Positions 38,909-62,193 of a stretch of DNA of 64,000 bases are shown here, piece by piece (position 1 is the stretch's first letter; each line of letters opens with the position of its first letter). Both the position numbers and the translations under genes were made by a program. The notes beneath the pieces are model-generated. The model had not been told where the DNA came from and made no database searches. It saw only the letters and a list, made by a program, of their open reading frames with translations. Origin of the DNA: Patescibacteria group bacterium. GTDB lineage: Bacteria > Patescibacteriota > WWE3 > UBA101185 > UBA10185. The DNA lies in contig JBMORU010000001.1 in NCBI GenBank assembly GCA_049322215.1, positions 516,023 to 580,022 on the forward strand, given 5' to 3'.

Positions 38909-39163
38909 ATGACACATAAACACTTATCTCATTATATTTTGCTTGTATTAGGCTTAGTGGTTACTATGCTTTTGTTCATTTATTTCAAATACAATCCTGC
39001 TGCACAAACAATAGTTGCTGGAGTAGGGGCTTTGTATTACATTTCATGGGGTTTAATTCATCATGGTATAGAAGGTCGTTTAGATAAAGCAGTATTGCTA
39101 GAATATGTACTATTTGGAATTATAGTGTTTGCTTTAGTGTTTGCTTCTATTTATTTTTTGTAA
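38909..39163 (+). CDS. hypothetical small membrane protein
   Basis: It is an 84-aa, 3-TM ORF immediately after the CAP-domain gene. Confidence 0.35.
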   Translation: MTHKHLSHYILLVLGLVVTMLLFIYFKYNPAAQTIVAGVGALYYISWGLIHHGIEGRLDKAVLLEYVLFGIIVFALVFASIYFL

Positions 39164-39194: not shown

Positions 39195-40313
39195 ATGAAA
39201 GTTGTAATAGTAACACCCACATATAATGAACGTGAAAATATAGGCCGTATAATAGAGACGGTTGCTGGTGTTGCAAAAGAACTTAGTACACATGATTTGA
39301 TTTTACTTGTAGTAGATGGTAATTCCCCGGATGGTACAAGTGAATATGTGACTTCTCTTTCAAAAACGTATCCATTTGTACATTTATTAAGAGAAAAAGA
39401 AAAAGCGGGATTAGGCGCAGCCTATGTTCAAGGTTTTAAATATGGAATGACTGAGCTAAATGCAGATGTGTTGGTTGAAATGGATGGTGATTTTCAGCAT
39501 GATCCTAAAGATATTGTTAAATTTGTTAACGCTATTGAGCAGGGTGCCGACTATGTTATTGGTTCAAGATATGTTTCAGGGGGTCGTATACCAAAAGAAT
39601 GGGCATTTTACAGAAAGTTTCTAAGTTGGGGCGGTAGCTTATTTTCCAAAGTTGTCTTAGGCATTTTCTCAATAAATGATTTTACTTCAGGTTATAAGGC
39701 ATCAAGAGTTAAGGGTTTTGTAGATAAATTAGATTTAGATTCCATAATGTCTCAGGGCTTTGCTTATAAAATTGACCTTCTTTTTAAAATGCACAAAATT
39801 GGTGCGAAATTTGTGGAGGTACCAATAGTTTTTGGGCTTAGGGACAGAGGGGATTCAAAAATGGAAAAGGGCAATTTTATGGATTCTTTAAAGGTTGTAA
39901 TTCTATTACGCATTAGAGATAATCCCAGTTTTTTTAAATTTTTAGTAGTTGGATTAGTTGGTTTAGGTGTTGACTTAGGTTTGTTTAATGTTTTACGGGT
40001 AACGCTTTTAAGTTCGGAATATGCTAGTGCTTTTTCTGGTTTTATAGCCATGTTGACTACCTACATTCTTAACAATGCTTGGTCATTTAATGATAGAAAA
40101 ATTAATTCATTAAAGGGTAAGTTAACTTCTTTACCTTTTTACATATTAGTGTCTTATATTCCAATTTTATTAAGGAGTATACTAGTTAAATATTCTATAC
40201 TTTATTTAGGTGATACTTGGTACATATCAAATAGCGCCTTTTTCGTTGGTGTTTTATTTGGTATTGCGTGGAATTACACCATATACAATAAGGTAATATG
40301 GAGGAAAAAATAA
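39195..40313 (+). CDS. GT2 polyprenol-phosphate sugar synthase (Dpm1-like) fused to C-terminal GtrA-like domain
   Basis: It begins VIVTPTYNEREN... and has LLVVDGNSPDGT and a DxD-like motif. The C-terminal 120 aa are GtrA-like 4-TM (FLKFLVVGLVGLGVDLGLFNVL). Confidence 0.7.
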   Translation: MKVVIVTPTYNERENIGRIIETVAGVAKELSTHDLILLVVDGNSPDGTSEYVTSLSKTYPFVHLLREKEKAGLGAAYVQGFKYGMTELNADVLVEMDGDFQHDPKDIVKFVNAIEQGADYVIGSRYVSGGRIPKEWAFYRKFLSWGGSLFSKVVLGIFSINDFTSGYKASRVKGFVDKLDLDSIMSQGFAYKIDLLFKMHKIGAKFVEVPIVFGLRDRGDSKMEKGNFMDSLKVVILLRIRDNPSFFKFLVVGLVGLGVDLGLFNVLRVTLLSSEYASAFSGFIAMLTTYILNNAWSFNDRKINSLKGKLTSLPFYILVSYIPILLRSILVKYSILYLGDTWYISNSAFFVGVLFGIAWNYTIYNKVIWRKK

Positions 40314-40314
40314 A

Positions 40315-41067
40315 ATGACAGAGTTTTCTATAGTTATTCCTGCATACAATGAGGAATCAAGAATTATTAGCACTTTAACGCAAACTATTAATTTTATGAA
40401 TTCCTTTTCAGATGCTTTTGAAATAATAGTAGTCGATGATGGAAGCAGTGACTCAACAGTAGATATTGTTTCGAAATATGCAAAAGAGCGTTCCAACATA
40501 AAATTAATACAGAATTCTCATAAAGGTAAGGGCTATGCTGTGAGAACAGGGGTATTAAATGCCCTTGGGGAATATATATTGCTTTCCGATGCCGATATGG
40601 CAACTCCAATTGAAGAACTAAAGCGACTGCACGTGTGGATGAAAGATAGCGATTTTGATGTTGTTATCGCATCTAGAGAGGGTGTTGGCGCTCGAAGAAA
40701 TAAAGAACCGTTTATTCGTCACTTAATGGGTCGAATTTTTAATATGATGATTCGTTTACTATTGGTGCCTGAAATTCAAGATACCCAATGTGGGTTCAAG
40801 CTTTTTAAGAAAAAAGCTGCCTATGATATTTTTAGGCGTTTGGTTTTATACGGAGAAAATGCTAAAGAACTTAAACATCCACGCGTAACTGCTTTTGATG
40901 TAGAAGTTTTGTTTGTTGCAAGAAAACTAAACTATCGCATCAAAGAAGTTCCTGTGACATGGACATATGATGCCGGCACAAAAGTAAATAAAATAAGAGA
41001 CTCTATAGTCAATTTTATTGACATTCTCACTATAAAAGTAAATTCCTTGCAAGGCAAATACAATTAG
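40315..41067 (+). CDS. GT2 glycosyltransferase (dolichyl/polyprenyl-phosphate beta-glucosyltransferase-like)
   Basis: It has FSIVIPAYNEE, VVDDGSSDST and LSDADMATP. Confidence 0.7.
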   Translation: MTEFSIVIPAYNEESRIISTLTQTINFMNSFSDAFEIIVVDDGSSDSTVDIVSKYAKERSNIKLIQNSHKGKGYAVRTGVLNALGEYILLSDADMATPIEELKRLHVWMKDSDFDVVIASREGVGARRNKEPFIRHLMGRIFNMMIRLLLVPEIQDTQCGFKLFKKKAAYDIFRRLVLYGENAKELKHPRVTAFDVEVLFVARKLNYRIKEVPVTWTYDAGTKVNKIRDSIVNFIDILTIKVNSLQGKYN

Positions 41068-41121
41068 TAAGCTTAAGTGCTTTACTAATAGGTGGTACAT
41101 AGTTTAGAATCTAATCCCGTT

Positions 41122-42492
41122 ATGAAACTTTGTGTAATTGGTACAGGTTATGTAGGTTTAGTTGGTGCCGCGATTTTCGCGGACTGGGGTAACGAAGTAG
41201 TTGGTGTTGATATTGACGCTACCAAAATTAAAAAAATCCAGGAGGGCATTATGCCTATTTATGAGCCTGGTCTTAAATCCATAGTTTTAGACAACATAAA
41301 ATCAGGACGTTTAAAGTTTACTACAAAGCTTAAAGCAGGCATGAAAGATGCAGATATAGTTTTTATATGCGTTGGTACTCCTCAAAGCGATACCGGAGCT
41401 GCCGACTTATCTTTTGTAACTACTGTTGCCAAAGATATTGGTAAAAACTTGGTACCTGGTGAATACAAACTAGTAGTAACAAAAAGTACTGTTCCTGTTG
41501 GGACTAATGAGTACGTAAAATCTATTATTTCAAAAAATGCGCATAAAGATGCCGAATTTGATATAGCTTCCAATCCTGAATTTTTACGTGAGGGTTATTC
41601 TGTGGAGGATATGCGCAACACCGATAGAACCGTAATTGGTTTTGAAACCGAACGTGCCGGTAAATTGTTGCATAAACTATACCATCATTTGCTATCTCCA
41701 ATTGTAGACTGTGATTTGCGTTCCGCGGAGATGATTAAATATGCTTCTAATGCTTTTCTGGCGACAAAAATATCTTTTATAAATGAAATAGCACAACTTT
41801 GTGAGCGCGCGGGTGCCGATGTAGACTTAGTTTCAAAAGGTATGGGTTTAGATAGCCGAATTGGCTCAAGGTTTTTGCAAGCAAGTACTGGTTATGGAGG
41901 AAGTTGCTTTCCCAAAGATGTGGCTGCTTTATACAAAACCTCAAGTGATCAAGCATATGACTTTAAACTTTTGCGCGGTGTTATGGAGGTTAATGAACGT
42001 CAAAAAGAGTTTTTTGTACATAAAATCACCAAGTTTTTAGGTGAGAACTTGTCAGGTAAAACCATTGCATGCTTAGGGTTGGCATTTAAAGAAAATACAG
42101 ATGACACTAGAGAGTCTGTAGCAATCAGTATTGTACAGATGTTACGCGGTAAAGGGGCACACATACGAGCTTTTGATCCTGCGGCAAACGAGAACGCAAA
42201 AAAAATTCTGGGTGAAGGTCAAATTCACTATGCTACAAGTATTGGGGATGCCCTAAAAGGATCGGATGTGCTTTGCATTTTAACTCCTTGGGATGATTTT
42301 AGAGGTTTGACTACGGAAGAATTACTTCAACTAAATGATAAAGTTGTATTTGACGGTCGTAATTTACTTGATAAGGACGAAATACAGGAAGTTGGAATTA
42401 TGTACTTTGCTATAGGTAAAAGAACCAACGGAAGCGAAGAAATATCCCGAAGTGGGCCGTACGCTATTTTAAATGGTGATAAACTTAAGTAA
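41122..42492 (+). CDS. ugd: UDP-glucose 6-dehydrogenase family (nucleotide-sugar dehydrogenase)
   Basis: It has an N-terminal Rossmann (MKLCVIGTGYVGL) and the catalytic GGSCFPKD. An alternative upstream ATG lies at 41092. Confidence 0.8.
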   Translation: MKLCVIGTGYVGLVGAAIFADWGNEVVGVDIDATKIKKIQEGIMPIYEPGLKSIVLDNIKSGRLKFTTKLKAGMKDADIVFICVGTPQSDTGAADLSFVTTVAKDIGKNLVPGEYKLVVTKSTVPVGTNEYVKSIISKNAHKDAEFDIASNPEFLREGYSVEDMRNTDRTVIGFETERAGKLLHKLYHHLLSPIVDCDLRSAEMIKYASNAFLATKISFINEIAQLCERAGADVDLVSKGMGLDSRIGSRFLQASTGYGGSCFPKDVAALYKTSSDQAYDFKLLRGVMEVNERQKEFFVHKITKFLGENLSGKTIACLGLAFKENTDDTRESVAISIVQMLRGKGAHIRAFDPAANENAKKILGEGQIHYATSIGDALKGSDVLCILTPWDDFRGLTTEELLQLNDKVVFDGRNLLDKDEIQEVGIMYFAIGKRTNGSEEISRSGPYAILNGDKLK

Positions 42493-42501
42493 ACTTGTCT
42501 C

Positions 42502-43725
42502 ATGAAGACTGTTCTTTATTTTATACCTGAATTTCCCCGAATTTCTGAAACTTTCATTGAAAGAGAAGTAGCTCATTTGCTGAATAATCCTGAAATTGAT
42601 TTGCATGTGTTTTCTTTACAAAAAGCATCTGGAAGCACTAGCGCTGCTGTGCTGAAAAAAACTACCTATAAAAGACTAAAGATTAAACATTTACCTCGTT
42701 TATTTGTATTTTTTGTAAAAAATGTGCACAAGTTACCCTTACTTATAAATTTGGCATCCGGTCCTGATAGGTTATCTTACTTAAGAAGGTATTGGCATGT
42801 TATTAAGTCTTTTGGTTATGCTATGTTTTTTAGCGAATTTTCCCCAGATCATATTCATGCGCATTTCTTTTCTGAACCATCAAACATTGCAATGTTTGCA
42901 TCAAAAATTTTGAACGTGCCATTTAGTGTTTCTGCCCATGCAAGAGATATTTTTGTAGATGCAACCTTACTGCCTATAAAAGCAAAAGAAGCTAAATTTG
43001 TTGCCATTTGTAACCAAAGAGCCTGGGGTAGAGCTTTAGAACTAGTTGGAAATGAGTATAGGCATAAGTTACATATGATTTACCATGGTATAGACCATGA
43101 AAAGATATTTTCATTTCCTCCTAGCTTAGATAAACCCGCCAAACCAGTCATATTTCTTGGAGGTACGCGTTTGGTAGAAAAGAAAGGGATTAAATATGTA
43201 ATCGAAGCTTCCAAATTGTTGAAGGAACGCGGCATTGATCATGTAGTTAATTTGGTAGGTCCCGGACCATTATTTAAAGAGTTGTCAGAATTAATTACAC
43301 ACTTAGGTTTGGAAGACACCGTTATTATACATGGTGGTGGAAACGGAACCCCGTTTGCTGTAGTAGCAGATCACTACAAAATTGCCGATATATTTGTATT
43401 TCCTTCATTTGAAACTGGTGAAGGAGATATGGATGGTGTGCCAACCGTTGTAATAGAAGCATCTATGGCAAAACTTCCAATTATTACTACAAATGCAGGT
43501 AGTATTTCAGACTTAATTACCCGTGAGAATGGCATAATAATTCCTCAAAAGAATTCTCAAGCTATTGCAAATGCTATAGAGGAATTGCTTTTAAACCCTG
43601 AGTTACGTGAAAGCTTAGGTAAAAAAGCATATGAAAAAGCAGTTAAGATGTTTGACATAAATAAAAACATATCAACTCTTGCTTCCTATTTTCTTCAGAA
43701 AACAAAAGCTAAGGATTTTTGTTAA
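42502..43725 (+). CDS. GT4-family glycosyltransferase
   Basis: It has a GT-B C-terminal domain with ...EGDMDGVPTVVIEASMAKLPIITT.... Confidence 0.7.
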   Translation: MKTVLYFIPEFPRISETFIEREVAHLLNNPEIDLHVFSLQKASGSTSAAVLKKTTYKRLKIKHLPRLFVFFVKNVHKLPLLINLASGPDRLSYLRRYWHVIKSFGYAMFFSEFSPDHIHAHFFSEPSNIAMFASKILNVPFSVSAHARDIFVDATLLPIKAKEAKFVAICNQRAWGRALELVGNEYRHKLHMIYHGIDHEKIFSFPPSLDKPAKPVIFLGGTRLVEKKGIKYVIEASKLLKERGIDHVVNLVGPGPLFKELSELITHLGLEDTVIIHGGGNGTPFAVVADHYKIADIFVFPSFETGEGDMDGVPTVVIEASMAKLPIITTNAGSISDLITRENGIIIPQKNSQAIANAIEELLLNPELRESLGKKAYEKAVKMFDINKNISTLASYFLQKTKAKDFC

Positions 43726-43735
43726 AATACATACC

Positions 43736-44932
43736 ATGAGAATAGCTGTGTTTATAAAGAACACTACACTACATAGTACATATGGCGGTTTAGAGACCCA
43801 AAATAAAGTTTTATGTGAGTCTTTAGCTAAATTTGGTCACGAAGTATATGTTTTTGCTCCGAAAAAGGGTCTTTCCCTTGAAGAGAAAGTTGAAAACAAC
43901 GTTAATTATATATTTGTTCCTGCAATTTTTAAGAGATTCAGCTATTTATACTCTTTGAGTGGTGAAAGTTGGATAAATAAATCCTATTCAGTTTTTGCCC
44001 ATACTAATGCACAAAAGAAATTTGATATAGTTGTTAGTCAGAGCTCTGCGGGATTAGGAATAATTAAACATAAAAATGTACTTGAAGTTCCAATAGTTGC
44101 TATAGCACACGGATCAAAAATGGGCGAGCTTAAAACCCGGTTACGAGAACTTAGTTCTTTTAAGGAAGTTTGCCGATTAGGTATAGATATTCCACATATA
44201 TTTCGAGCATTCTTTATTACCCAGCGTGAATTTGTTTTAGGGTCAAACAAAATTGTGGCAGTATCAAATGCTGTTAAAGTGGCGCTGATTGAAGAAACAT
44301 TTATAAACGATTCTAAAGTTGAGGTTATACACAACGGATTAGATCCCGAGCTTTTCTCCTTTAAAAAGAGCAGCGCTCATAAGTTTACTCGTTTGCTTTA
44401 CGTTGGGAGGCTTGAGCAGTCAAAGGGAATTCATATTTTACTAAAAGCAATAAGCTCTAAAAAAATTGATAATGTAATTTTAACTATTATTGGGTCTGGG
44501 CCTTATGAAAAGCAACTTAAGCATTTAGTCAAAGAGTTAGACTTATATAATGTGGTGAGTTTCAAAGGTAGCCTTCCGCATGATAAGGTAATAAATGAAT
44601 ATGCTGAGGCTGACATTTTTATACTTCCTTCTTTGAGAGTAGAAGGATTTCCTATGACCTTGGTAGAAGCTATGCTTTCTGGGTTGCCGATTATTGCTTC
44701 AAATATAGGTGGGAATTCTGATGCCGTGACAAATGAGGAAACTGGTTTTTTAGTTACTCCTGGAGAAACTAAAGAGTTAAGAGATCGTATTCATGCCCTA
44801 GTTAGTTCACCTAAATTGCAGAAGCAGTTTGGTAAAAATGGTAGAATGATAGCCCGAAGTCATTTTTCAGTAAACATTATGACCAAGAAGTATTTAGATG
44901 TATTTAAGGACCTAATAAATGAAAATTCTTAG
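43736..44932 (+). CDS. GT4-family glycosyltransferase
   Basis: It has ...EGFPMTLVEAMLSGLPIIAS.... The ATG at 43736 is chosen over the upstream overlapping start. Confidence 0.7.
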   Translation: MRIAVFIKNTTLHSTYGGLETQNKVLCESLAKFGHEVYVFAPKKGLSLEEKVENNVNYIFVPAIFKRFSYLYSLSGESWINKSYSVFAHTNAQKKFDIVVSQSSAGLGIIKHKNVLEVPIVAIAHGSKMGELKTRLRELSSFKEVCRLGIDIPHIFRAFFITQREFVLGSNKIVAVSNAVKVALIEETFINDSKVEVIHNGLDPELFSFKKSSAHKFTRLLYVGRLEQSKGIHILLKAISSKKIDNVILTIIGSGPYEKQLKHLVKELDLYNVVSFKGSLPHDKVINEYAEADIFILPSLRVEGFPMTLVEAMLSGLPIIASNIGGNSDAVTNEETGFLVTPGETKELRDRIHALVSSPKLQKQFGKNGRMIARSHFSVNIMTKKYLDVFKDLINENS

Positions 44933-46127
44933 AATTATTTACGAGTGGCCCCCTCCGTGGGATGGGTTAACCGCACACCCATACGAGCTTACTGTGTCGC
45001 AAAGCAAATTGGGGCATGAAATTGAAATAATTTGTGGAAGATGGCCTCGTGCTGGTGATATAGAGCAAGTAAAAAATGTAAAACTACATCCTTTAATTAG
45101 AGAACCTTTAAATGGTTTGCTTTTAATTACGGTTGCTCCTTTGGTTTTGTTTAAATATTTATCAGTTTCCAGGCGTTTTAAACCTGATGTTGTTCACATT
45201 CACGGGCACTTTGGTTTATATGTGTACTTGTATAGAACCTTTTTAGGTAAGTTTTATAAAAAAAGCTTAGAGTTAAGTGTTCCCATAGTTTCACACTTTC
45301 ATAATACTGTCGCCGGAAGATGGGAAGCCTCTCGTGAAAATAATATCGAACTCAAGCCTTTAACTAAATTGGTACATTGGCCTTTAGCAAAAGTTTCCGA
45401 TTCATTGGCAGTTAAACATGCTTCTGCTTGTGTTTTTGTTAGCGAGGCAACTAAGCAAGAGGCAATAAAGCACTATAATGCTTCTCCCGAAAAATGTTTT
45501 GTCGTAGAAACTGGGGTAAATCCCATTTTGTTTTCGAGGGTTTCTCAAGAGGAGAAAGAAAAAACACGAAAAGACTTAGGGTTAGATAATTACGATAAGG
45601 TGATTTTAAATAATGGAGCCATGGTCGAAAGAAAAAACATACACTTGCTAGTAGAGGCGTTAAAACATCTTCCCATAGAATATAAATTACTTCTTGTTGG
45701 CCCTGGAGATCCTGACTATATGTATAAACTAGATACATTAATAGCTGACAACCAACTTAATCATCGTGTAGTAAAAGTGGGCTATACTCCGTACCCTAAT
45801 GTTCCTATTGCATTTCAAGCAGCCGATATATTTGTTTTACCATCAGGTTGGGAGGGTCTTCCAAAAGTTGTAATGCAAAGTCTTGCTTGTGCTGTTCCCA
45901 CTCTTGCATCTGGGTTTAAGTTGGCAAATCCCGTTGAGGGTTTATTTTATATACAAGAGCTTACTCCCGAAACTATTGCACGCCAAATAAAACAAATAGT
46001 TGAGGATGATCCATTTGTTGATTCAAATACAATTGCGTTGCACTATTCCTGGGATACTAAGGCACAGCAACTTGAGCAGGTTTATCAGTTTGTTCTTAAT
46101 CAAGACACCAATGTTCAACCTCAATAA
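44919..46127 (+). CDS. GT4-family glycosyltransferase
   Basis: It has ...EGLPKVVMQSLACAVPTLAS.... Confidence 0.65.
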   Translation: MKILRIIYEWPPPWDGLTAHPYELTVSQSKLGHEIEIICGRWPRAGDIEQVKNVKLHPLIREPLNGLLLITVAPLVLFKYLSVSRRFKPDVVHIHGHFGLYVYLYRTFLGKFYKKSLELSVPIVSHFHNTVAGRWEASRENNIELKPLTKLVHWPLAKVSDSLAVKHASACVFVSEATKQEAIKHYNASPEKCFVVETGVNPILFSRVSQEEKEKTRKDLGLDNYDKVILNNGAMVERKNIHLLVEALKHLPIEYKLLLVGPGDPDYMYKLDTLIADNQLNHRVVKVGYTPYPNVPIAFQAADIFVLPSGWEGLPKVVMQSLACAVPTLASGFKLANPVEGLFYIQELTPETIARQIKQIVEDDPFVDSNTIALHYSWDTKAQQLEQVYQFVLNQDTNVQPQ

Positions 46128-47691: not shown

Positions 47692-47693
47692 AA

Positions 47694-48380
47694 ATGAAAT
47701 TATCGGTAGTTATTCCCGTTTACAATGAAAAGGAGACCTTACTAAAAATATTAAAAAAAGTAGAGGCTGTTGAAGGTCTTGATAAGGAGATTATTTTAGT
47801 TGACGATGCCTCAACTGATGGAAGTACTGAACTACTAAAAAAAATACAAAAGAAAAACCCTGAGTATAAAATAGTATTTAAGGAAATTAATAGTGGAAAA
47901 GGGGCAAGCTTGCGAGAAGGTTTCAAACGCACCACAGGAGATTACGTTATAGTTCAAGATGCTGATCTTGAATACTATCCTTCTGATTATTTAGTATTAT
48001 TACGCGCTTTAAATGAGAGTGGGGCGGATGTTATTTACGGCTCCAGATTTTCGGGAAATTATGAAGACATGTCTAGTTTGCATTACTTTGGTAATAAGTT
48101 TTTAACTATCATTACAAGTATTTTATTTGGAGTACTACTAACTGATATGGAGACATGTTATAAGTTACTACCTGGTAAATTTGCCCGAAACGTAGATATT
48201 AAGTCTAATAGGTTTAACTTTGAGCCTGAAATAACTGCTAAAATAATTAGAGCAGGGCTTCGCATAAAAGAAGTTCCTATTAAGTACAGTGGTAGATCTC
48301 ATTCTGAAGGTAAAAAAATAACTTGGCGCGATGGCTTTTCGGCGATTTATACTTTACTTAAGTTTAGATTTTTTAGTTAA
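47694..48380 (+). CDS. GT2 polyprenol-phosphate glycosyltransferase (ArnC/Dpm1-like)
   Basis: It begins KLSVVIPVYNEKETL and has VDDASTDGS and DADLEY. Confidence 0.7.
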   Translation: MKLSVVIPVYNEKETLLKILKKVEAVEGLDKEIILVDDASTDGSTELLKKIQKKNPEYKIVFKEINSGKGASLREGFKRTTGDYVIVQDADLEYYPSDYLVLLRALNESGADVIYGSRFSGNYEDMSSLHYFGNKFLTIITSILFGVLLTDMETCYKLLPGKFARNVDIKSNRFNFEPEITAKIIRAGLRIKEVPIKYSGRSHSEGKKITWRDGFSAIYTLLKFRFFS

Positions 48381-48383
48381 ATT

Positions 48384-50471: not shown

Positions 50472-50496
50472 TGTTTGGGATTATAATGGCCAGAGT

Positions 50497-51954: not shown

Positions 51955-52006
51955 TTACGGTTTTTCTTGTAAATTAGGTATAATTTACTGTGCCTGCAAT
52001 ATTTAT

Positions 52007-54506: not shown

Positions 54507-56028
54507 AGAAGCCAGGTACTTTTGGTTACTACTTTTTGGTGCTTTTTTAATACGTGTAATTGGTATTGGCCATGGATATCCGTTTGTATTTCATCCTGAT
54601 GAACCTTCTGTAATTCGTTCTGCATTAGGTTTAATGTTTGAACCTAATCCAAAGCACTTTGATTGGCCGCATTTTCACTTTTATTTAAACTATCATTTAT
54701 TTTGGAATTTCACGAAATTTCGTCGTATATTTACAACTAGCACAGGTGTTTTTTCTATTTTATGGAAAGAACCAATAATTTTTTATCTAGTTTCACGTGC
54801 TTTTAACTCGTTACTTGGCGCTCTAACCTTAATTCCTGTGTATCTTACAGGCAGGTCTTTATTCAACAAAAACGTTGGATTGATAGCTGCCGCGCTTTTG
54901 ACTATACTGCCGTTTCATGTGCATGCCTCTCGACTTGCTTTAATAGATGTTCCTATGACTTTTTGGTTATCTATTGGCGTATTTTTTTCTGCCAAAATAC
55001 TCACCAACCCTAACTATAGATACTATATATTTTCTGGATTCTTTATTGGATTAGCAGCTTCTACCAAGTATAACGGTGGGTTAGTTGCTTTGGCAGTCCC
55101 AACAGCTCATATACTTAGAACCATGTACTCAAAAGACGAAAAAGTTGCAAGTGTTCGTGGTGCACTATCTCTTGTTTTTTCAGGTATTTTTGCAGCTTTT
55201 GGATTTATATTAGGCACACCCTATGCGCTTCTTGATTTTAAAACGTTTTCTCGAACAGATAGCCCAAAGGGGGCACTTTGGCAATTTACTAATGTTGGTA
55301 GTGTTTCGGGAGCGGATCAATTTCATCAGTTTTTAAATGTTATAACATTTAAGTTATCCGATGATTTTGGGTTTACTATATTAGTTGCTTATTTTATGTG
55401 TGCGCTAGTTTTTATACTCGCCGCTGTTTTTTATAAAAGCGGAAGATTTACTAATTTAAATATTTTAAAAGAGAAATCAATTGAAGTTTGGTTTTTACTT
55501 ATACCATCATTGTTTATGTTTTATTACATTTCCGGGTTTGCTAAACCTCGTTCTCACTACTTTATGATGGTGTATCCGTTTGTCGTTTTATTAGCAGGCG
55601 CATTTTTACTTGAATTTTTAAAAATTTTTTCCAAATACAAAAGTGTACTTTTAATAGCTTTTTTTGTGCTCCCACTTTATATGACTAGCTTAATTACTGT
55701 GCGTGCTTTACGCGCAGACACTCGAGTTTTGCTTTACAAGTGGTTGGAGAATAATTTAACGAATGAAGATTTAATTTATTATTCCAACAAAGAAACAAAA
55801 ACTGTACTAGAACCTTTTAGTAATAAATCCAACAGTATTAAAGAAGTAAATACTCCGACCCAACATGATGTAATGATATTCACATTTTCCGATCATGAGT
55901 ACAGTAATTTTCTACATGGAAACAGTGACTATGATTTTGTGAATAAAACCGCGTCCTTAAAAGAAGAAATAAAGCCTTATTATAGAAACGGACCAAACAT
56001 ACTAATATATAGAGGCACCATAAAATGA
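54472..56028 (+). CDS. GT-C-type membrane glycosyltransferase (ArnT/PMT_2-like)
   Basis: It is multi-TM with an HPDEPS first-loop motif typical of PMT_2/ArnT-like GT-C enzymes. Confidence 0.55.
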   Translation: MLKKPRDFIKTKEARYFWLLLFGAFLIRVIGIGHGYPFVFHPDEPSVIRSALGLMFEPNPKHFDWPHFHFYLNYHLFWNFTKFRRIFTTSTGVFSILWKEPIIFYLVSRAFNSLLGALTLIPVYLTGRSLFNKNVGLIAAALLTILPFHVHASRLALIDVPMTFWLSIGVFFSAKILTNPNYRYYIFSGFFIGLAASTKYNGGLVALAVPTAHILRTMYSKDEKVASVRGALSLVFSGIFAAFGFILGTPYALLDFKTFSRTDSPKGALWQFTNVGSVSGADQFHQFLNVITFKLSDDFGFTILVAYFMCALVFILAAVFYKSGRFTNLNILKEKSIEVWFLLIPSLFMFYYISGFAKPRSHYFMMVYPFVVLLAGAFLLEFLKIFSKYKSVLLIAFFVLPLYMTSLITVRALRADTRVLLYKWLENNLTNEDLIYYSNKETKTVLEPFSNKSNSIKEVNTPTQHDVMIFTFSDHEYSNFLHGNSDYDFVNKTASLKEEIKPYYRNGPNILIYRGTIK

Positions 56029-57641
56029 AAAAAATAGCCAGTTACTATAAAAAGTACAAATACCTATTGTGTGTTCCATTTTTATTTATTCTCTTAAGAG
56101 CACCTACTCTTGGTTATGATATGTTCAACACCGATGTTTTCAAGTGGAAGGCTAGAATATTTGATTTCGGTAGTGGCATATTTTATCTAGATTTCGCAAA
56201 AACAATACAAAAATATCATCCTGGGGTATCACTAATGTGGCCTGGGGCTTTAGCTGTAAAGTTTTTTAATCTTAAGTATGACTTATTTAATGGTTTCCCT
56301 CCGCCTGACAATGACATAAACGTTGTTTTCGAACTACACGCTGTTCAAAAGTTTGCTGTTGTTTTTGTAATAGCAGTAACTTTAACATTCATTTTTTATG
56401 CTTTGGAAAAAACTATTGGTAGAAAATATGCAATATTAGCAACTTTCTTGATAGCAGTTGAGCCTTTTTATGTAGCATTAACACGTGTGATACACCTTGA
56501 AGGTATGATGACTACTTACATGCTTGCATCATTTAGTTGGTATTATTACTTTTTACAAGACAAAACACAGCGCAAGCGCTTACTGTTTTCAGGGGTATTT
56601 GGGTCATTAGCTGTTTTAACTAAAACTACCGCACTGTTTATGTTACCATTTGTCTTTTTGATTTCGTTTTTAAGTAGTTACTTAAAAACACATCAGTCAA
56701 TAAATTCTTTAAAATTTAGCTTCAAACATGGATTGCTCTGGCTAGCAATAGCTTTTTTTGGATTTGTACTATTATGGCCTGGTGTTTGGGTTGCACCTAC
56801 TGAAGTTTTTAGTGCGTTAACGCGTGGTGTAGATACAATAGGAATCGAAGGCGGTCATGGTCAGTTATTTTTAGGAAATTGGATAGAAAGCGACCCGGGT
56901 GTGATTTTTTATCCTGTAGTTTTATGGCTACGAAGTTCACTTTATCTGCTAATAGGTTTAGTTGGCTTTCTATTTATTGCAAAAAATCTTAACAAAAAAG
57001 AAAAAGAATTTGCGCTATTTGTATTTTTATTCGCAGTTTTTTATACTATTGAGCTTTCAATCCCGTCGAAGAAATTAGATAGGTATTTACTTCCATCTAT
57101 AGTTTCTCTGTTACTATTGTCTACTTTTTTTTATAAATATTTATGGGAAAAGTTAAAAGATGCTAAGAATTTAAGACTTCTATTATTTATACCCGCACTT
57201 ATTCATTTAGTTTATTTACATCCTAACTATTTTGCTTACTACAACCCTTTGGCAGGTGGTTTATCTAAAGGGATATTCATGCTTGAACCAAAATGGACAT
57301 TTGGGCAACAGGAGTTAATGCAATATTTAAATGAGCTTGTGGTATCTGAAAATCTTGAATTATTTAGCAAAGGAGAATCTTTTCATAACTCAGATAGTTT
57401 AGATAACAAGCTTACTGTTGCTTTTCCTGAGAAGTACTATACACAGCTTGAACCATTCATTAAGCTAATAGGTGGTTGGGCAGTAATTGAAAGTTTAACT
57501 GCAGAGGCAATGGAAACAAACTTTTTTATTTATCCTGTGTGGGATGACTACTCAGCAAACGAAACAAGATTTGATCTTGAAAAAATTGGCACCGTAAAAG
57601 TTCACGGTGTAGATATATACAATGTATACAGGAGATACTAA
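56025..57641 (+). CDS. GT-C-type membrane glycosyltransferase, paralogue B of 52914..54506
   Basis: It shares YHPGVSLMW and KKLDRYLLP motifs with 52914..54506 and has a soluble C-terminal domain. Confidence 0.5.
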   Translation: MKKIASYYKKYKYLLCVPFLFILLRAPTLGYDMFNTDVFKWKARIFDFGSGIFYLDFAKTIQKYHPGVSLMWPGALAVKFFNLKYDLFNGFPPPDNDINVVFELHAVQKFAVVFVIAVTLTFIFYALEKTIGRKYAILATFLIAVEPFYVALTRVIHLEGMMTTYMLASFSWYYYFLQDKTQRKRLLFSGVFGSLAVLTKTTALFMLPFVFLISFLSSYLKTHQSINSLKFSFKHGLLWLAIAFFGFVLLWPGVWVAPTEVFSALTRGVDTIGIEGGHGQLFLGNWIESDPGVIFYPVVLWLRSSLYLLIGLVGFLFIAKNLNKKEKEFALFVFLFAVFYTIELSIPSKKLDRYLLPSIVSLLLLSTFFYKYLWEKLKDAKNLRLLLFIPALIHLVYLHPNYFAYYNPLAGGLSKGIFMLEPKWTFGQQELMQYLNELVVSENLELFSKGESFHNSDSLDNKLTVAFPEKYYTQLEPFIKLIGGWAVIESLTAEAMETNFFIYPVWDDYSANETRFDLEKIGTVKVHGVDIYNVYRRY

Positions 57642-57644
57642 TTA

Positions 57645-58931
57645 GTGCCTAACGAAATAGTTGCTAAAGCAAAAAACATACTTTTTTCTGGAACAATAAT
57701 AGTTACTATTGGGTTGTTTGTTACCAACATTTTAAGCTATTTACTCCAGCTTTTTTTAGGTAGATATTTAAGCCTGACTGATTATGGCGTTTTTACCGCA
57801 CTTTTATCACTTTTTTCAATTTTAGGTATAGCTACAACAGCTTTAACTACTTCATTAATAAAACTAACTTCTGAGTTAAAAGCAAATGAAGATTACGAAA
57901 AGCTAACAAACCTTTTTTGGCAGTTTGTAAAAATATCAATTCTTGTAGTTTTTGTATTTGTCACGGTGCTTTACTTTGCACGTGACTTTTTAGGTTCTTA
58001 CTTAAATATAGAAGATCACTATATTTTTCCTGTGTTTGGTATGTACATTGGTCTTACTTTTTTAAATGCAGTGCCTTCTTCGTATCTGCAAGGTTTATTA
58101 CGTTTTAAAGCGTTTGCTTTTTTTAGTGTTTTAAGTAGCTCGCTGCGTTTAGTAATTTCAACACTTTTTGTAATTTTTGGTCTTTCTGTGGCCGGTGTTT
58201 TTTATGGAATGAGCATTGCTGTAGTTTTATCCTTTTTCGTTTCACTATTTTTGTTAAGTAAAAACTTTATAAAATACAATAACAATAACCTTAAGCCCTT
58301 TTACAAAAAAGTTTTGGTTTTTAGTACCCCTGTGTTATTTGTGAATGTTGGTATGATGATACTAAATAACATTGATGTAATTTTAGTAAAGCATTTTTTC
58401 GATTCAGAAACTGCAGGTTTGTATTCTGGTGTTGTTACAATGGGTAAAATTTTGCTTTTTGGTGCTGGGACTATAGGTATTGTTATGTTTCCTCAAATTT
58501 CCGAACTTTACACTAAAGGAGTTCCTTATTTAGCTAAATTTAAAGAATTTTTTTTGATACAACTTGTTCTAATATTAGGCGGTTTGGCTTTTTTTACCCT
58601 TTTTCCTGAGTTAATAACCAAAATCATGTTTGGGCATAAATTTTTGGAATCGGTCTCGTTAATTCCAAAGTACACTTTATTTGTAGGAATTTATGTTTTG
58701 ATAAACTTTATGATTCTGTTTTTTTTAGCTATAAACAAAACACGCGTGTTTTTACTTCAGGTTCCTATAGTGATTTTTCAATATGCATTTATTAATTTAA
58801 AGCATTCAACATTAGAAGAAATAATAAATATCAATATTTTTGTGTCAGCACTTCTTTTACTATTAGTTTTGTTGTACTTTTATTTTGTGCTTAAAGAAGA
58901 AAAACCTTCACACACTATTGTTGTAGACTAA
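57645..58931 (+). CDS. MOP-superfamily flippase (Wzx-like), GTG start
   Basis: It is 428 aa with about 12 TM helices. Confidence 0.45.
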   Translation: MPNEIVAKAKNILFSGTIIVTIGLFVTNILSYLLQLFLGRYLSLTDYGVFTALLSLFSILGIATTALTTSLIKLTSELKANEDYEKLTNLFWQFVKISILVVFVFVTVLYFARDFLGSYLNIEDHYIFPVFGMYIGLTFLNAVPSSYLQGLLRFKAFAFFSVLSSSLRLVISTLFVIFGLSVAGVFYGMSIAVVLSFFVSLFLLSKNFIKYNNNNLKPFYKKVLVFSTPVLFVNVGMMILNNIDVILVKHFFDSETAGLYSGVVTMGKILLFGAGTIGIVMFPQISELYTKGVPYLAKFKEFFLIQLVLILGGLAFFTLFPELITKIMFGHKFLESVSLIPKYTLFVGIYVLINFMILFFLAINKTRVFLLQVPIVIFQYAFINLKHSTLEEIININIFVSALLLLLVLLYFYFVLKEEKPSHTIVVD

Positions 58932-58972
58932 AAAGTGTTTTTTTAGATTAATCATGTGGTATATTTGTCCTA

Positions 58973-60874
58973 ATGTTAGTTTCCGTCATTGTTCCAGCCT
59001 ATAAAAAGGAAGAATCCATCATAGAAGATATTACAAATATCTTCAATGCAATGTCAGAAACTCGCTATGATTTTGAACTTATAGTTGTAGAAGATGGCTA
59101 CTTAGATAACACGCATGAAGTATTCTCAACTTACTTAAAAGAAAATTCAAATATTTCGTCAAAAGTAAACTTCATAGGTTATAAGAGAAACAGGGGAAAA
59201 GGTTATGCCCTTCGCTATGGTATGGCGCGGGCACGTGGTGATTATGTGGCTTTTATAGACTCAGGTATGGAGATAAATCCAAATGGGATATCGTTAATGC
59301 TTGAACACATGATTTGGTACGATGCCCATATTATTGTTGGTAGTAAAAGGCATCCTGCATCACGAACTAACATGCAACTAATGCGAAAAATATACAGTTG
59401 GGGATATTACTGGTTTGTTAAGTTGTTATTTGGTTTGCATGTGTCTGACACTCAAACCGGATTAAAAGTTTTTAGAAAAGATGTATTGCAAGATGTTTTA
59501 CCACGCTTATTGGTAAAAGAATTTGCAATAGATATAGAAATACTGGCAGTAGCTAATTACTTAGGGTACACCCGAATATACGATGCGCCAGTTGAAATTG
59601 ATTTAAAGTTTACTCAAGATTCAAAATTTTCTGCAAAAAAACCGTTATTTTTAGATAAATTTGTGCGCATGATGGTTAGGGATACTTTAGCCGTGTTTTA
59701 CAGAATGCACATTTTAGAATATTATTCGGACAAAAGTCATAGAAAATGGACGTATGACGAAGAGTTAAGGATGCGAGTAAACACAGGAGAAATGTTTTCT
59801 GAAGGAGAGTTTATTGGGATGCTCTCTGACTTAGGACAAGAAATACCCAAGGAAACAGCATTTCCAAAGTTTAGTATTATAATTCCGGTTCGTTCGGTTA
59901 ACGATTACTTAAAAGAAAATATTAAGCACTTAAAAAAGCTTGATTATGATAATTTTGAAGTTCTTATAATTTTAGATGATCAGCCAACATATAAAGTTAA
60001 AGATTCAAGATTTAGGTACATTGCGGTAGGTCCTTTAAGCCCAGGTGAAAAACGAAATTTAGGTGCAAGAAATGCCACAGGAGAAATATTAGCCTTTTTA
60101 GACGATGATGCTTATCCTAATACTAATTGGCTTAGTGAAGCTGCAAAAGTATTTAGAGATCCCGAAATATATGCCTTAGGTGCTCCTGCCATTACACCAA
60201 AAAATGCTGAATTTTTAGAAAAATGCTCGGGTAGGGTGTTGGAGTCGTTTTTAACTAGTGGAGATACAATTCACCGCCATGTTCCTCAGTCACGTAGACT
60301 TGTAAACGATTATCCAACTGTTAACTTTTTTGTTAGAAAACACGATTTTTTTGGCGTTGGTGGTTTTACAAAAGATTTTTGGCCAGGAGAAGACACCAAG
60401 CTGTGTTTAGATTTAATTAAAGAAAAACAGCGCGATTTTGTATATGATCCAAACCCTATTGTTTACCATCATAGAAGAAAGCTATTCGTACCACATTTAA
60501 AGCAGGTTTCTCGTTATGGTAGACATAGAGGACAGTTTGCTAAAGTGTTTCCCGAAAACTCACGTGTGCTTTCATACTTTGTACCCTCTTTATTTTTATT
60601 AGGTGTAATTTTTGGTCCGATAATATCTTTAATTTACCCACCTTTATTTTTGTTTTATACCTTTGTAATTTTGTGTTATTTAGGCTTAATTGTTTACGAA
60701 TCTACTCGGGTAATTTTGCATGACAAAAACTTATTAGCAGGTTTTTACGTGGCATTAGGCATTATGGCCACTCATTTTATTTACGGTTTAAACTTTATTG
60801 TTGGACTAGTAAAAAGGCCTACGTTACAATTGAGAAGCTTCGATTCAAGCACTGGAAATTATTTAGGAGGATAA
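58973..60874 (+). CDS. tandem double-GT2-domain glycosyltransferase with C-terminal TM anchor
   Basis: The first GT2 has VSVIVPAYKKE...VVEDG...DSG. The second GT2 has FSIIIPVRSVNDY...ILDD...DDDAYP. Two to three C-terminal TM helices follow. Confidence 0.65.
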   Translation: MLVSVIVPAYKKEESIIEDITNIFNAMSETRYDFELIVVEDGYLDNTHEVFSTYLKENSNISSKVNFIGYKRNRGKGYALRYGMARARGDYVAFIDSGMEINPNGISLMLEHMIWYDAHIIVGSKRHPASRTNMQLMRKIYSWGYYWFVKLLFGLHVSDTQTGLKVFRKDVLQDVLPRLLVKEFAIDIEILAVANYLGYTRIYDAPVEIDLKFTQDSKFSAKKPLFLDKFVRMMVRDTLAVFYRMHILEYYSDKSHRKWTYDEELRMRVNTGEMFSEGEFIGMLSDLGQEIPKETAFPKFSIIIPVRSVNDYLKENIKHLKKLDYDNFEVLIILDDQPTYKVKDSRFRYIAVGPLSPGEKRNLGARNATGEILAFLDDDAYPNTNWLSEAAKVFRDPEIYALGAPAITPKNAEFLEKCSGRVLESFLTSGDTIHRHVPQSRRLVNDYPTVNFFVRKHDFFGVGGFTKDFWPGEDTKLCLDLIKEKQRDFVYDPNPIVYHHRRKLFVPHLKQVSRYGRHRGQFAKVFPENSRVLSYFVPSLFLLGVIFGPIISLIYPPLFLFYTFVILCYLGLIVYESTRVILHDKNLLAGFYVALGIMATHFIYGLNFIVGLVKRPTLQLRSFDSSTGNYLGG

Positions 60875-61135
60875 ATGAAAAATGGGCAAATGGAATTTGC
60901 TTCCAATCCTGATTCAAAAGTAAAAATCAAAGTAATTAATGCGCTTTGCATTAGCGCTGCAACCTGTATTATTAATGCTCCCGAAACATTTGATTTAGAT
61001 GAAGATGGTATAGCTTATGTAAAAGAGGGCACTTGGGACGATGCGCAAGCAATTGTCGCAGCTGCAGCTTCCTGCCCTACTACTGCAATAATAATTGAAG
61101 ATCTAGAAGGTAATCAAATTTATCCCGAAGTATAA
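60875..61135 (+). CDS. small ferredoxin-like protein (3-Cys, single-cluster type)
   Basis: It is 86 aa. C-ISAAT-C...APETFDLDEDG...CPTTAII parallels mono-cluster ferredoxins (C..C..CP...CP), but only three Cys are present. Confidence 0.5.
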   Translation: MKNGQMEFASNPDSKVKIKVINALCISAATCIINAPETFDLDEDGIAYVKEGTWDDAQAIVAAAASCPTTAIIIEDLEGNQIYPEV

Positions 61136-61138
61136 TTT

Positions 61139-62149
61139 ATGCATAAATCCGCCTTTTTGTTTTTTAAAAACAGTAGAAAAGCATGTGAAAGTTTTGACAA
61201 ATATCCTTCTACAGAAGAATTAATTAATGCAGCTTCAGAATTAAATTTAGATTCCATATTTGCACAAGACTTTACATTAACAAGTGAAGTAATTAGTGAA
61301 ATTAAGCAAAAAATTCCAAATGTAAAAATTTACGGAAGTGTTACCGTTTTTGCACCAAAAAATGAAGAAGAAAATTTATTTGATGGCGAAGCAGTAGAAG
61401 TAGCGGGTTTAAAAAAACCTAACTCCGACTTTGTTGGAGTTTGCCCAACGTACAAACCTGTAATAGAAAGAGCACTAAATGATGTTAAAGACTTATTAAA
61501 AAAAGATGTAGACGGTATTTGGCTGGATGCGTTACGTTATACTACGCATTGGGAAACTGAAAGCCCAGTTGTGCTTGATACTTGCTATTGCGACAGATGC
61601 TTAAGTATGTTTGAAGACTTTATAGGAGAACCTATTGAAGGTGCTGACTTAGAAGAGAAACATTTACATATTGACGGCAGTTACTACCACGAATGGTTAA
61701 AGTTTAAAACCGAGCAAATTGTTTCATTTGTTAAAGCAGTAAAAAAAGTGATTTCTGAGTCTGGAAAACAAGTTGAGCTTGGTTATTTTGCGATTCCTTG
61801 GGAAGACAAAGATTATGGTGCTGGTATTAAAAGAATAATGGCTCAAGATTTTGAACTTCTTTCTGGTTTGACTGATATGTTTAGTCCTATGCTATACCAT
61901 AAAATGTTGGGTAAGCCTGTAAGTTGGGTTTCACATATGGTTGATTATTTTTGGCAGGTTGGTGCTCCCTTTTTGCCTTTAGTTCAAACAGAAAATATTG
62001 AAAGTAATTTTGATGCTAACGAGTTTAAAGAATCGCTAGAAGGTGCAGTACAAAAACCTTCTTCCGGTGTGTGTATTTTTTATTTAGATGACCTAATGTT
62101 GCAGCCGGATAAATTGAAGATTGCTAAAGAATTTTTTTCCTCCAATTAA
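61139..62149 (+). CDS. putative glycoside-hydrolase-like TIM-barrel protein
   Basis: It is 336 aa with GIWLDALRY and CYCDRC motifs reminiscent of GHL-type (glycosyl hydrolase-like) families. This is a weak assignment. Confidence 0.3.
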   Translation: MHKSAFLFFKNSRKACESFDKYPSTEELINAASELNLDSIFAQDFTLTSEVISEIKQKIPNVKIYGSVTVFAPKNEEENLFDGEAVEVAGLKKPNSDFVGVCPTYKPVIERALNDVKDLLKKDVDGIWLDALRYTTHWETESPVVLDTCYCDRCLSMFEDFIGEPIEGADLEEKHLHIDGSYYHEWLKFKTEQIVSFVKAVKKVISESGKQVELGYFAIPWEDKDYGAGIKRIMAQDFELLSGLTDMFSPMLYHKMLGKPVSWVSHMVDYFWQVGAPFLPLVQTENIESNFDANEFKESLEGAVQKPSSGVCIFYLDDLMLQPDKLKIAKEFFSSN

Positions 62150-62165
62150 AATAGAATACCCCAAT

Positions 62166-62193
62166 TTGACACTAAAGACCCTTAATGTATTAT
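62166..62193 (+). promoter_or_regulatory. sigma-70-like promoter (TTGACA, 16-nt spacer, TATTAT) upstream of the lipoprotein gene
   Basis: The -35 is at 62166-62171 and the -10 at 62188-62193. The RBS aaggagag is at 62232-62239. Confidence 0.5.

Follow-up and report, generated by a model that had tools for sequence, protein, structure and literature searches.

The DNA analysed here, referred to below as the window, is a 64-kb stretch from a 1.11-Mb Patescibacteria genome of the WWE3 lineage (GCA_049322215.1, contig JBMORU010000001.1, positions 516,023 to 580,022). It contains, at 37931-62149, a block of 20 genes (24.2 kb, approximately 2.2% of the genome) rich in cytoplasmic and membrane-embedded glycosyltransferases (GTs). 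We consider it probable that this block is a single, lineage-conserved WWE3 operon whose products make one envelope glycoconjugate in two stages, with cytoplasmic assembly on a lipid followed by extension outside the membrane. The likeliest product is a glycopolymer resembling a lipoglycan and anchored in the membrane or the wall. The case for a single operon rests on tight gene packing, the use of one strand, a promoter-like site just past 62149 and synteny across relatives. An earlier reading of this DNA from its letters alone (the sequence-only reading) had placed about eighteen same-strand genes at 39195-62149. The gene count and strand were correct, with 18 consecutive genes on the + strand and intergenic gaps of -35 to +52 nt, but the boundaries were not, since synteny across relatives shows that the conserved unit is larger and begins at 37931. 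The genes of the unit are as follows, and are named below by their start coordinates.

37931..38908, + strand: membrane-anchored CAP (SCP/PR-1) domain protein, first gene of the unit (Pfam CAP)
38909..39163, + strand: 84-aa protein with three predicted transmembrane (TM) helices (weak DUF5656 match)
39195..40313, + strand: archaeal-type polyprenyl-phosphate hexose (mannose-type) synthase (Pfam GT2 and GtrA_DPMS_TM)
40315..41067, + strand: soluble GT2, ArnC/GtrB/DPMS-like (PDB sequence matches)
41092..42492, + strand: UDP-glucose 6-dehydrogenase, which makes UDP-glucuronic acid (UDP-GlcA), optional member (Pfam, TIGR03026)
42502..43725, + strand: GT4 glycosyltransferase 1, cytoplasmic and nucleotide-sugar dependent (Glycos_transf_1)
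43736..44932, + strand: GT4 glycosyltransferase 2 (Glycos_transf_1, Glyco_transf_4)
44919..46127, + strand: GT4 glycosyltransferase 3 (Glycos_transf_1, Glyco_transf_4)
46111..47691, + strand: GT-C transferase with ArnT-like fold, 526 aa (orthologue domains, AlphaFold2 model)
47694..48380, + strand: soluble Dpm1/DPMS-like GT2, between two GT-C genes (Pfam GT2, PDB matches)
48384..50471, + strand: DUF2079 GT-C transferase, 695 aa (predicted model, Foldseek)
50497..51954, + strand: MOP-superfamily (Wzx-like) flippase 1 (Polysacc_synt_3, Polysacc_synt)
52007..52936, + strand: stand-alone MprF-type flippase-like membrane protein, accessory (LPG_synthase_TM PF03706, TIGR00374)
52914..54506, + strand: GT-C transferase, PMT_2-like (paralogue of 56025)
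54472..56028, + strand: GT-C transferase, PMT/PMT_2 type (Pfam PMT, PMT_2)
56025..57641, + strand: GT-C transferase, PMT type (Pfam PMT)
57645..58931, + strand: MOP-superfamily (Wzx-like) flippase 2 (Polysacc_synt)
58973..60874, + strand: double GT2 (two Pfam GT2 stretches)
60875..61135, + strand: small single-cluster 4Fe-4S ferredoxin (Fer4_13)
61139..62149, + strand: cytoplasmic glycoside-hydrolase-like (GH-like) TIM-barrel protein, last gene of the unit (orthologue domains)

One genome per GTDB species was scanned with an alignment of the 46111 family, and matches came from 78 loci. With few exceptions these carry the labels WWE3, Patescibacteria or, in third-party annotation (TPA) assemblies, Saccharibacteria; the complete genome CP006914.1 (RAAC2_WWE3_1) is one of them. 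Candidate division WWE3 supplies the great majority of orthologues, in keeping with the candidate phyla radiation (CPR) type of cell that had been suspected from the sequence. All cluster proteins were compared by tblastn with the 41 loci, from species representatives, that have full 10-kb flanks. The order is strictly collinear in these loci: CAP protein, 84-aa protein, DPMS-like GT2, GT2, UDP-glucose dehydrogenase, three GT4s, GT-C, GT2, DUF2079 protein, MOP protein, MprF-like protein and three GT-Cs, with mean amino-acid identities of 40-66%. Such a fixed order across WWE3, a lineage of tiny-celled and uncultivated bacteria, points to a likely core surface structure rather than a strain-variable antigen.

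The three GT4s, the GT-C 46111 and the GT2 47694 are present in all 41 loci, and 47694 is the most conserved gene of the cluster (66% identity). The GT2 40315, the DUF2079 protein (48384), the first MOP protein (50497) and 52914 are each found in 40 loci, the DPMS-like 39195 in 39 (57% identity), and the CAP protein (49% mean identity) and the 84-aa protein in 38. Counts fall to 36 of 41 for the UDP-glucose dehydrogenase, 54472 and 56025, those of the latter two being limited by locus edges, and to 29 for the MprF-like protein. Two genes of the unit can be dispensed with. Five of the 41 loci lack the UDP-glucose dehydrogenase (it is absent from L002 and L010, and a 33-aa remnant is left in L003), and 12 lack the MprF-type gene, with a methyltransferase in its place in one subclade (L003 and L005). 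At the 3' end the order of second MOP protein, fused or adjacent GT2 pair, ferredoxin and GH-like barrel is kept wherever the GH-like orthologue is at least 41% identical (approximately 21 loci with upstream sequence).

Downstream of the unit, relatives (L004, L005, L006, L085, L091, L095 and L099) carry a variable block, which is absent from the visible part of this window. It includes a B12-binding radical-SAM enzyme in most relatives, GDP-mannose dehydratase, epimerases, a DegT aminotransferase, a sulfotransferase, several methyltransferases, extra GT2 and GT4 genes, a YfhO GT-C and DUF4012. The pattern suggests that a conserved core glycan is decorated differently from lineage to lineage, an arrangement opposite to that of an ordinary O-antigen or capsule locus.

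Probable translation starts were corrected for three listed open reading frames (ORFs), from 46000 to the ATG at 46111, from a TTG at 43679 to the ATG at 43736 for the second GT4, in agreement with the gene call in L001, and from 51899 to 52007 for the MprF-like protein. The highest-scoring promoter-like site between 44.5 and 64 kb (62166-62193, 11/12) lies directly after the last gene of the unit, and Rfam and tRNA scans of the 64-kb window found nothing. The 770-aa lipoprotein encoded from 62244 was considered as a further member and rejected, as it has this strong promoter-like site of its own and is not conserved beside the cluster in relatives. The families proposed from sequence (GT2, GT4, UDP-glucose dehydrogenase, Wzx-like, MprF-like and double GT2) were all recovered with Pfam and NCBIfam, and two genes within 39195-62149 that had gone unnamed are the single-cluster ferredoxin (60875) and a 336-aa protein without a Pfam match (61139).

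Three GT2 proteins had been proposed as Dpm1/ArnC-like synthases of polyprenyl-phosphate sugars, and Pfam and PDB alignments agree, more weakly for 40315. DXD-type motifs are readable in all three. The best supported is 39195, which consists of a GT2 catalytic domain with the motif DGDFQHDP and a four-TM GtrA/DPMS domain. Its residues 1-369 align end to end with residues 23-372 of the Pyrococcus furiosus DPMS (5MLZ; E 1.7e-46), so that the 'GtrA' part is the native membrane domain of a DPMS and not an added flippase. The GT2-GtrA fusion described in the sequence-only reading does carry a GtrA-type domain, but the full-length alignment removes the evidence for an extra flippase. The second clear member of the Dpm1/DPMS/GtrB/ArnC group, 47694, matches Pfam GT2 (E 4e-35) and has as its top PDB match the catalytic domain of DPMS 5MLZ (residues 1-207, E 7e-19), followed by ArnC. 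It also matches the AglJ, PpgS and Haloferax Dol-P-hexose transferase profiles over nearly its full length, all below their equivalog cut-offs, and is probably a polyprenyl-phosphate sugar synthase.

Less certainly, 40315 is probably another such synthase. It matches ArnC (9BHC, residues 3-166, E 1.4e-17), DPMS (5e-13) and GtrB (1.7e-12) in the PDB and has a DADM motif, but the assignment is weaker because chondroitin synthase scores well too (E 3.5e-14). No NCBIfam equivalog cut-off was reached by 39195, 40315 or 47694, and both 40315 and 47694 are without a TM segment. The N-terminal GT2 domain of 58973 shares 33% identity with 40315 and may thus be a fourth synthase of Dpm1/ArnC type. The adjoining 41092 has all three UDPG_MGDP_dh domains, scores 460 bits against TIGR03026 (cut-off 190) and matches the TuaD profile at E 3e-161.

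All five large membrane proteins predicted to be GT-C transferases held up as such, through Pfam PMT matches, paralogy and two confident AlphaFold models, and none of them fell into a transporter or other non-GT family. Both PMT (E 4e-15) and PMT_2 (E 8e-15) match 54472 above the gathering score, with a weak STT3 match below it (E 1e-3), and 56025 matches PMT at E 3.7e-9 (37 bits; gathering score 22.7). The only Pfam match of 52914 at any threshold is a non-significant one to PMT_2 (E 0.012), but the protein is clearly paralogous to 56025 (32% identity over 454 aa, E 6e-50). PMT_2 matches 46111 below threshold (E 8e-5), and PMT_2 or PMT is present in many orthologues of 40-53% identity. Searches of PDB sequences with 52914, 48384, 54472 and the 46111 family profile gave nothing useful, with no match at all for 54472 and the 46111 profile, so comparison of folds was needed. 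An AlphaFold2 model of 46111 built on 38 orthologues (pLDDT 92.5, pTM 0.92) has ArnT (5EZM) as its top Foldseek match (E 2.6e-7, TM 0.60), followed by STT3, ALG12, ALG9, AglB, EmbB and AftD, and the C-terminal part is a predicted extracytoplasmic domain.

The predicted model of 48384 (pLDDT 88.1) returns only GT-C enzymes among its top 20 Foldseek matches, led by STT3, AglB and PglB. It has a membrane GT-C module and an extracytoplasmic C-terminal region of approximately 280 aa ending in a beta-sandwich, which in the model resembles carbohydrate-binding domains and would fit a carbohydrate acceptor. As hhalign detects no relation between the 46111 and DUF2079 families (probability 0.9%), their common GT-C status rests on structure. 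The five proteins share a short basic N-terminus, a first TM helix and then an acidic residue in the first outside loop, with the N-terminus inside by the positive-inside rule. These loop-1 acidic residues are invariant or at least 90% conserved among 38-52 orthologues in all five. The conserved motifs are E29-W30-G31-D32 in loop 1 and E52-K53-R54, both invariant, in 46111; invariant F46-D47-L48-G49 in 48384; N33-P34-D35 in 52914; D37 in 56025; and the classic H-P-D43-E44-P motif in 54472. Co-location with three Dpm1/ArnC-like GT2 genes suggests that all five use polyprenyl-phosphate-linked sugar donors.

Assignment to named GT-C families was less successful. Profile searches confirmed the GT2, GT4 and DUF2079 labels given from sequence, but not GT39 or GT83. 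The PMT profile matches 54472 and 56025 only centrally (82-226 of 245) and Pfam finds neither PMT_4TMC nor MIR in them; lacking PMT_4TMC, they fall outside true GT39 PMTs, and the database label 'GT39 family' traces to PMT_2 similarity. With respect to GT83, 46111 shares the ArnT fold at just 11% identity and has no NCBIfam match, and no Arn pathway gene was found in the window. Nor do the proteins belong to GT66 (STT3/AglB/PglB), as the STT3 gathering score was unreached and no WWDYG-type motif is visible in 54472.

The operon also encodes five cytoplasmic GT domains, in the three GT4s and the double GT2. Among the GT4s, 42502 matches Glycos_transf_1 (E 3e-32), has a full-length EpsE-like match below the equivalog cut-off (E 4e-41) and also matches the WcaL and TuaC profiles; 43736 matches Glycos_transf_1 (E 3e-45) and Glyco_transf_4 (E 2.5e-18); and 44919 has a weak full-length match to an alpha-monoglucosyl-diacylglycerol synthase profile (E 2.7e-10). 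The N-terminal domain of 58973 is ArnC/GtrB-like, and its C-terminal domain is of the Glyco_trans_2_3 type with two C-terminal TM helices. The protein matches the NCBIfam profiles MftF, EpsD and AglG, all below cut-off, and its two domains are fused in the window and in L004 but split into two genes in L005 and L006.

Three candidate flippases accompany these enzymes. The first MOP protein, 50497, matches Polysacc_synt_3 (E 6e-13) and Polysacc_synt (E 1e-9), both above the gathering score; it has no NCBIfam match at E 1e-3 or better and is therefore not assigned to MurJ. The second, 57645 (Polysacc_synt, E 7e-21), is kept ahead of the double GT2 in WWE3-type loci. The MprF-type protein 52007 matches PF03706 (E 5e-44) and the 'flippase-like' TIGR00374 (73.7 bits, cut-off 43.2). 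Five cytoplasmic GT domains together with two MOP flippases argue for a cytoplasmic, lipid-linked stage.

The Pfam scan covered nearly every ORF of at least 90 aa from 9.4 kb to the end of the window, along with SecY, adk and map; the first 9 kb otherwise appear to hold the rest of the ribosomal-protein operon. No match to Bac_transf, Glycos_transf_4, Wzy_C, Wzz or LCP was found among the scanned ORFs. Phosphoglycosyltransferase (PGT), Wzy, Wzz and LCP genes are likewise absent from the Pfam-annotated neighbourhoods of six relatives. Of the 29 families in 27 further ORFs from the variable regions in four relatives, none of the 25 listed belongs to this group. The sequence-only reading had noted the lack of PGT, Wzy and Wzz in the window and had argued from it against a classical Wzx/Wzy O-antigen locus. 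No WbaP/Wzy/Wzz set was found nearby, the MOP proteins are the only Wzx/Wzy-type component present, and collinearity in 41 species representatives supports that argument independently. The lack of a PGT in the cluster may leave room for one elsewhere in the genome or for PGT-independent priming. Precedents for the latter are Haloferax AglJ, which acts on polyprenyl monophosphate, and PimA, which acts on a membrane glycerolipid.

In the proposed first stage, the three GT4s and the double GT2 would build a core oligosaccharide on a lipid anchor at the cytoplasmic face, using nucleotide sugars that would include UDP-GlcA from the UDP-glucose dehydrogenase. With no PGT encoded in the operon, priming would fall to a PGT whose gene lies elsewhere in the genome, to a Dpm1-like GT2 that uses polyprenyl monophosphate as AglJ does, or to a GT4 or GT2 that uses a membrane glycerolipid in the manner of PimA. 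In the second stage single sugars would be loaded onto polyprenyl phosphate by 39195, 47694 and probably 40315. Candidates for translocating lipid-linked intermediates are the MOP proteins, the MprF-type protein and/or the DPMS membrane domain, and the five GT-Cs would extend and branch the glycan on the outer face.

Several points weigh against this two-stage reading. No priming enzyme, lipid anchor, polymerase or wall ligase (LCP) was identified within the 64-kb window. The ArnC likeness of 40315 is of a generic kind, and the similarity of the 48384 beta-sandwich to carbohydrate-binding domains is also generic to Ig-like folds. Two or more pathways could share the 20-gene operon. Should the MOP proteins flip nothing but polyprenyl-phosphate monosaccharides, the products of the GT4s and GT2s would need another means of export.

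The sequence-only reading had favoured stepwise glycosylation outside the membrane by independent three-component GT2/flippase/GT-C systems. Each would add single sugars to an acceptor made elsewhere, such as surface proteins, pili or an S-layer, peptidoglycan or a teichoic-acid-like polymer, with the MOP proteins flipping as GacK does. Three or four Dpm1/ArnC-like GT2s, five GT-Cs and several flippase candidates suit this model, as do the position of 47694 between two GT-C genes and the missing PGT, Wzy and Wzz. A Wzx-type flippase for C55-P-GlcNAc (C55 polyprenyl-phosphate N-acetylglucosamine) is documented (PMC8035078), and streptococcal GtrB/GT-C systems are reported to glycosylate Ser/Thr-rich protein regions (PMC12041528). 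The GT2-plus-GT-C logic of that reading stands, but its purely outside character does not fit the five cytoplasmic GT domains and two MOP flippases; it gives no role to the three GT4s, found in all 41 loci, or to the second GT2 domain of 58973. Such systems are also usually scattered and variable, not a fixed 20-gene block, and the sole conserved secreted protein in the operon, the CAP protein, would be a poor O-glycan acceptor (18% Ser/Thr in its linker versus 13%). We regard separate decoration systems as unlikely, if worth keeping in view. A conventional Wzx-dependent heteropolysaccharide (capsule, exopolysaccharide or secondary wall polymer) would have its PGT, polymerase and ligase elsewhere, or would use a divergent GT-C-like protein as polymerase or ligase. 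The two MOP flippases, the three GT4s, the GT2s and the UDP-glucose dehydrogenase would be usual in a locus of this type, 42502 matches the EpsE, WcaL and TuaC profiles, and the window covers just 64 kb of 1.11 Mb. Against this, no PGT, Wzy, Wzz or LCP turned up among the scanned ORFs or in the annotated surroundings of the cluster in relatives. Hypervariability is typical of such loci, but this one keeps its order throughout the lineage, and five GT-Cs with three polyprenyl-phosphate sugar synthases are far above the usual number. On these grounds the explanation is very improbable.

Protein glycosylation resembling the eukaryotic ALG and Haloferax Agl pathways would use many of the same parts in another way: a Dpm1-like GT2 would prime polyprenyl monophosphate, GT4s and GT2s would extend the chain, a MOP protein would flip it, and GT-Cs would finish it before en bloc transfer to protein by the DUF2079 protein or 54472. 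The parts do parallel those of ALG and Agl. The best NCBIfam profile is AglJ for 39195 and 47694, and AglM and AglG match 41092 and 58973, all below equivalog cut-offs; the Foldseek matches of the DUF2079 protein are topped by STT3, AglB and PglB, and 54472 has weak STT3 matches. However, the profile matches are those of generic GT2 similarity, no protein reaches the STT3 gathering score, 54472 shows no visible WWDYG-type motif, and no acceptor protein was identified. We judge protein glycosylation of this kind rather improbable. More far-reaching than the two-stage assembly of one glycoconjugate that we prefer is the idea that the operon builds the principal wall or envelope polymer of WWE3 by a PGT-independent, lipid-linked assembly line like those for ALG oligosaccharides and lipoarabinomannan. 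The DUF2079 GT-C or a PMT-like GT-C would then be the final en bloc transferase or polymerase, and the machine would have lineage-specific parts in the CAP protein and the ferredoxin/Cys-rich GH-like pair; to this we give little credence at present.

Multi-component transmembrane glycosylation systems include GtrA/GtrB/GtrC, CsbB/GtcA/YfhO and GacI/GacJ/GacK/GacL (PMC8035078, PMC11127046). The operon resembles them in having a GT2 for polyprenyl-phosphate monosaccharides, a GtrA/Wzx-type flippase and a GT-C with an acidic loop-1 motif, and all three predicted classes are present in several copies. The known systems are single triads that decorate a separately made polymer, unlike the three or four synthases, five GT-Cs and five cytoplasmic GT domains brought together in one fixed operon, and the MprF-type protein, CAP protein, ferredoxin and GH-like barrel have no counterpart in them.

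In mycobacteria and corynebacteria, phosphatidylinositol mannosides, lipomannan (LM), lipoarabinomannan (LAM) and arabinogalactan are made by the GT4s PimA, PimB' and PimC, the synthase Ppm1, and the GT-Cs PimE, MptA/B/C, EmbC and Aft. The likeness to LM/LAM synthesis lies in GT4s that act on a membrane lipid, a flip, and several GT-Cs that work outside with polyprenyl-phosphate sugars. That pathway needs no PGT, and both are conserved core envelope pathways. However, the operon has no sequence-level members of the mycobacterial pathway and no GT87/DUF2029, Arabinose_trans or PIG-V-type matches, its GT-Cs being PMT_2/ArnT-like or DUF2079, and the mycobacterial genes are scattered rather than in one operon.

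Eukaryotic ALG comprises the GT4s ALG2/11, the MOP-type Rft1, Dpm1/Alg5, the GT-Cs ALG3/9/12/6/8/10 and STT3, and Haloferax Agl includes AglJ, AglM, AglG, AglR and AglS. Shared with these are cytoplasmic GT4/GT2 steps, a MOP-type flippase candidate, Dpm1/Alg5/AglJ-like synthases, a UDP-glucose dehydrogenase (AglM) and several GT-Cs, and 39195 is a full-length homologue of the archaeal DPMS. They differ in that no STT3/AglB or ALG7-type PGT was detected in the operon, its GT-Cs fall outside ALG3/6/8/9/10/12 by sequence, and the host is a bacterium. In the ArnC/ArnT and actinobacterial Ppm1/Pmt systems, as here, ArnC/DPMS-like GT2s are paired with GT-Cs of ArnT fold or with a PMT domain, and the UDP-glucose dehydrogenase gene adjoins an ArnC-like gene, as Ugd feeds the Arn pathway. 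However, the operon has no ArnA, ArnB or ArnD, and the identity of 46111 to ArnT is approximately 11%; true GT39 enzymes have a PMT_4TMC domain that its PMT-like proteins do not. Lipid A synthesis genes are missing from the published WWE3 genome RAAC2 (PMC3812714).

Four conserved accessory genes lie at the head and tail of the unit. The CAP protein (Pfam CAP, E 2.5e-20) has an N-terminal TM helix, an extracytoplasmic CAP domain and two C-terminal TM helices, and many of its residues are at least 90% conserved, including D285, Y288, S289, K296 and H304 in the C-terminal TM part. We know of no glycan pathway that includes a CAP-domain protein. Its linker was considered as a Ser/Thr-rich acceptor for O-glycosylation and set aside, as enrichment is slight (18% versus 13% overall) and the length varies. 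The 84-aa gene follows with a 0-nt gap (DUF5656, E 0.003). In Streptococcus pyogenes the soluble GT-A GacI requires the small three-TM protein GacJ (PMC8035078), and by analogy the 84-aa protein may be a membrane partner of the TM-less GT2 synthases. Homology to GacJ itself was rejected, as the sequence gives no support beyond the weak DUF5656 match.

At the tail, the ferredoxin (Fer4_13, E 2e-9) lies directly 5' of the GH-like gene in every WWE3-type locus having upstream sequence. The GH-like protein 61139 has no Pfam match of its own, and its orthologues carry DUF4015, GH42 or GHL10. It has four near-invariant cysteines, C102 and C149-x-C151-x-x-C154 (the 'DTCYCDRC' motif), which may bind a metal or an Fe-S cluster within a glycoside-hydrolase-like fold. 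In other lineages, more distant homologues (25-38% identity) retain CYCxRC, but their genes do not adjoin cluster genes.

The novel elements are the lineage-wide fixed synteny, the wider boundaries, the DPMS-type donor synthase and the four conserved accessory genes. Because every enzyme class is already known, the advance lies in arrangement and lineage biology, not in mechanism. CPR/Patescibacteria make up a large share of bacterial diversity, and it is through their surface that they must attach to hosts and are exposed to phages; to our knowledge, the chemistry of that surface is essentially unknown. The operon offers a defined gene set for heterologous biochemistry, covering the polyprenyl-phosphate sugars made and the role of each GT-C, as well as a first functional context for DUF2079 and markers for WWE3 envelopes in cryo-electron tomography and glycomics. 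In describing a complete WWE3 genome, Kantor et al. (2013) found glycosyltransferases to be especially abundant in WWE3 and, unlike the other three genomes analysed, no complete identifiable peptidoglycan pathway (PMC3812714). That genome carries the cluster (locus L037). In the literature library searched, no paper mentions DUF2079 and none deals with Patescibacteria and GT-C, and the cluster as such appears to be undescribed.

Elsewhere, the window carries housekeeping genes (SecY, adk, map, a ClpB-like protein, a release factor, SecDF, RecJ, two aminoacyl-tRNA synthetases, RecA/RecX and RNase Y), two-component systems, a D-Ala-D-Ala carboxypeptidase, an arginase-family protein and S-adenosylmethionine decarboxylase. 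In several relatives (L003 and a JGI 3300071358 contig) the operon directly follows the ribosomal-protein/SecY/adk/map operon; in this genome map (4022-4765) is separated from the CAP gene by approximately 33 kb of housekeeping genes. Directly upstream of the unit is a polyamine pair, an arginase/agmatinase-family gene (36595-37467, + strand) and S-adenosylmethionine decarboxylase (37481-37882, - strand), the latter keeping this position in only four of 41 relatives. Downstream, the gene at 62244-64000 runs off the window and encodes a lipoprotein-like product (770 aa in L001) with the lipobox LLLLFGCSG, an acidic, Ser/Thr/Asn-rich N-terminal stretch and, in L001, a faint Peptidase_M23 match. 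The D-Ala-D-Ala carboxypeptidase (23614-24657) is of the Peptidase_S11 family; S11 and M23 enzymes both act on peptidoglycan, and these two proteins could act either on the cell's own wall or on that of a host. Among the ORFs without a significant Pfam or NCBIfam match are 24649-25806 (- strand; 385 aa, one N-terminal TM helix), 35708-36505 (- strand), a 265-aa polytopic membrane protein adjoining a histidine kinase, and 10111-10689 (+ strand), which encodes a secreted-looking protein of 192 aa.

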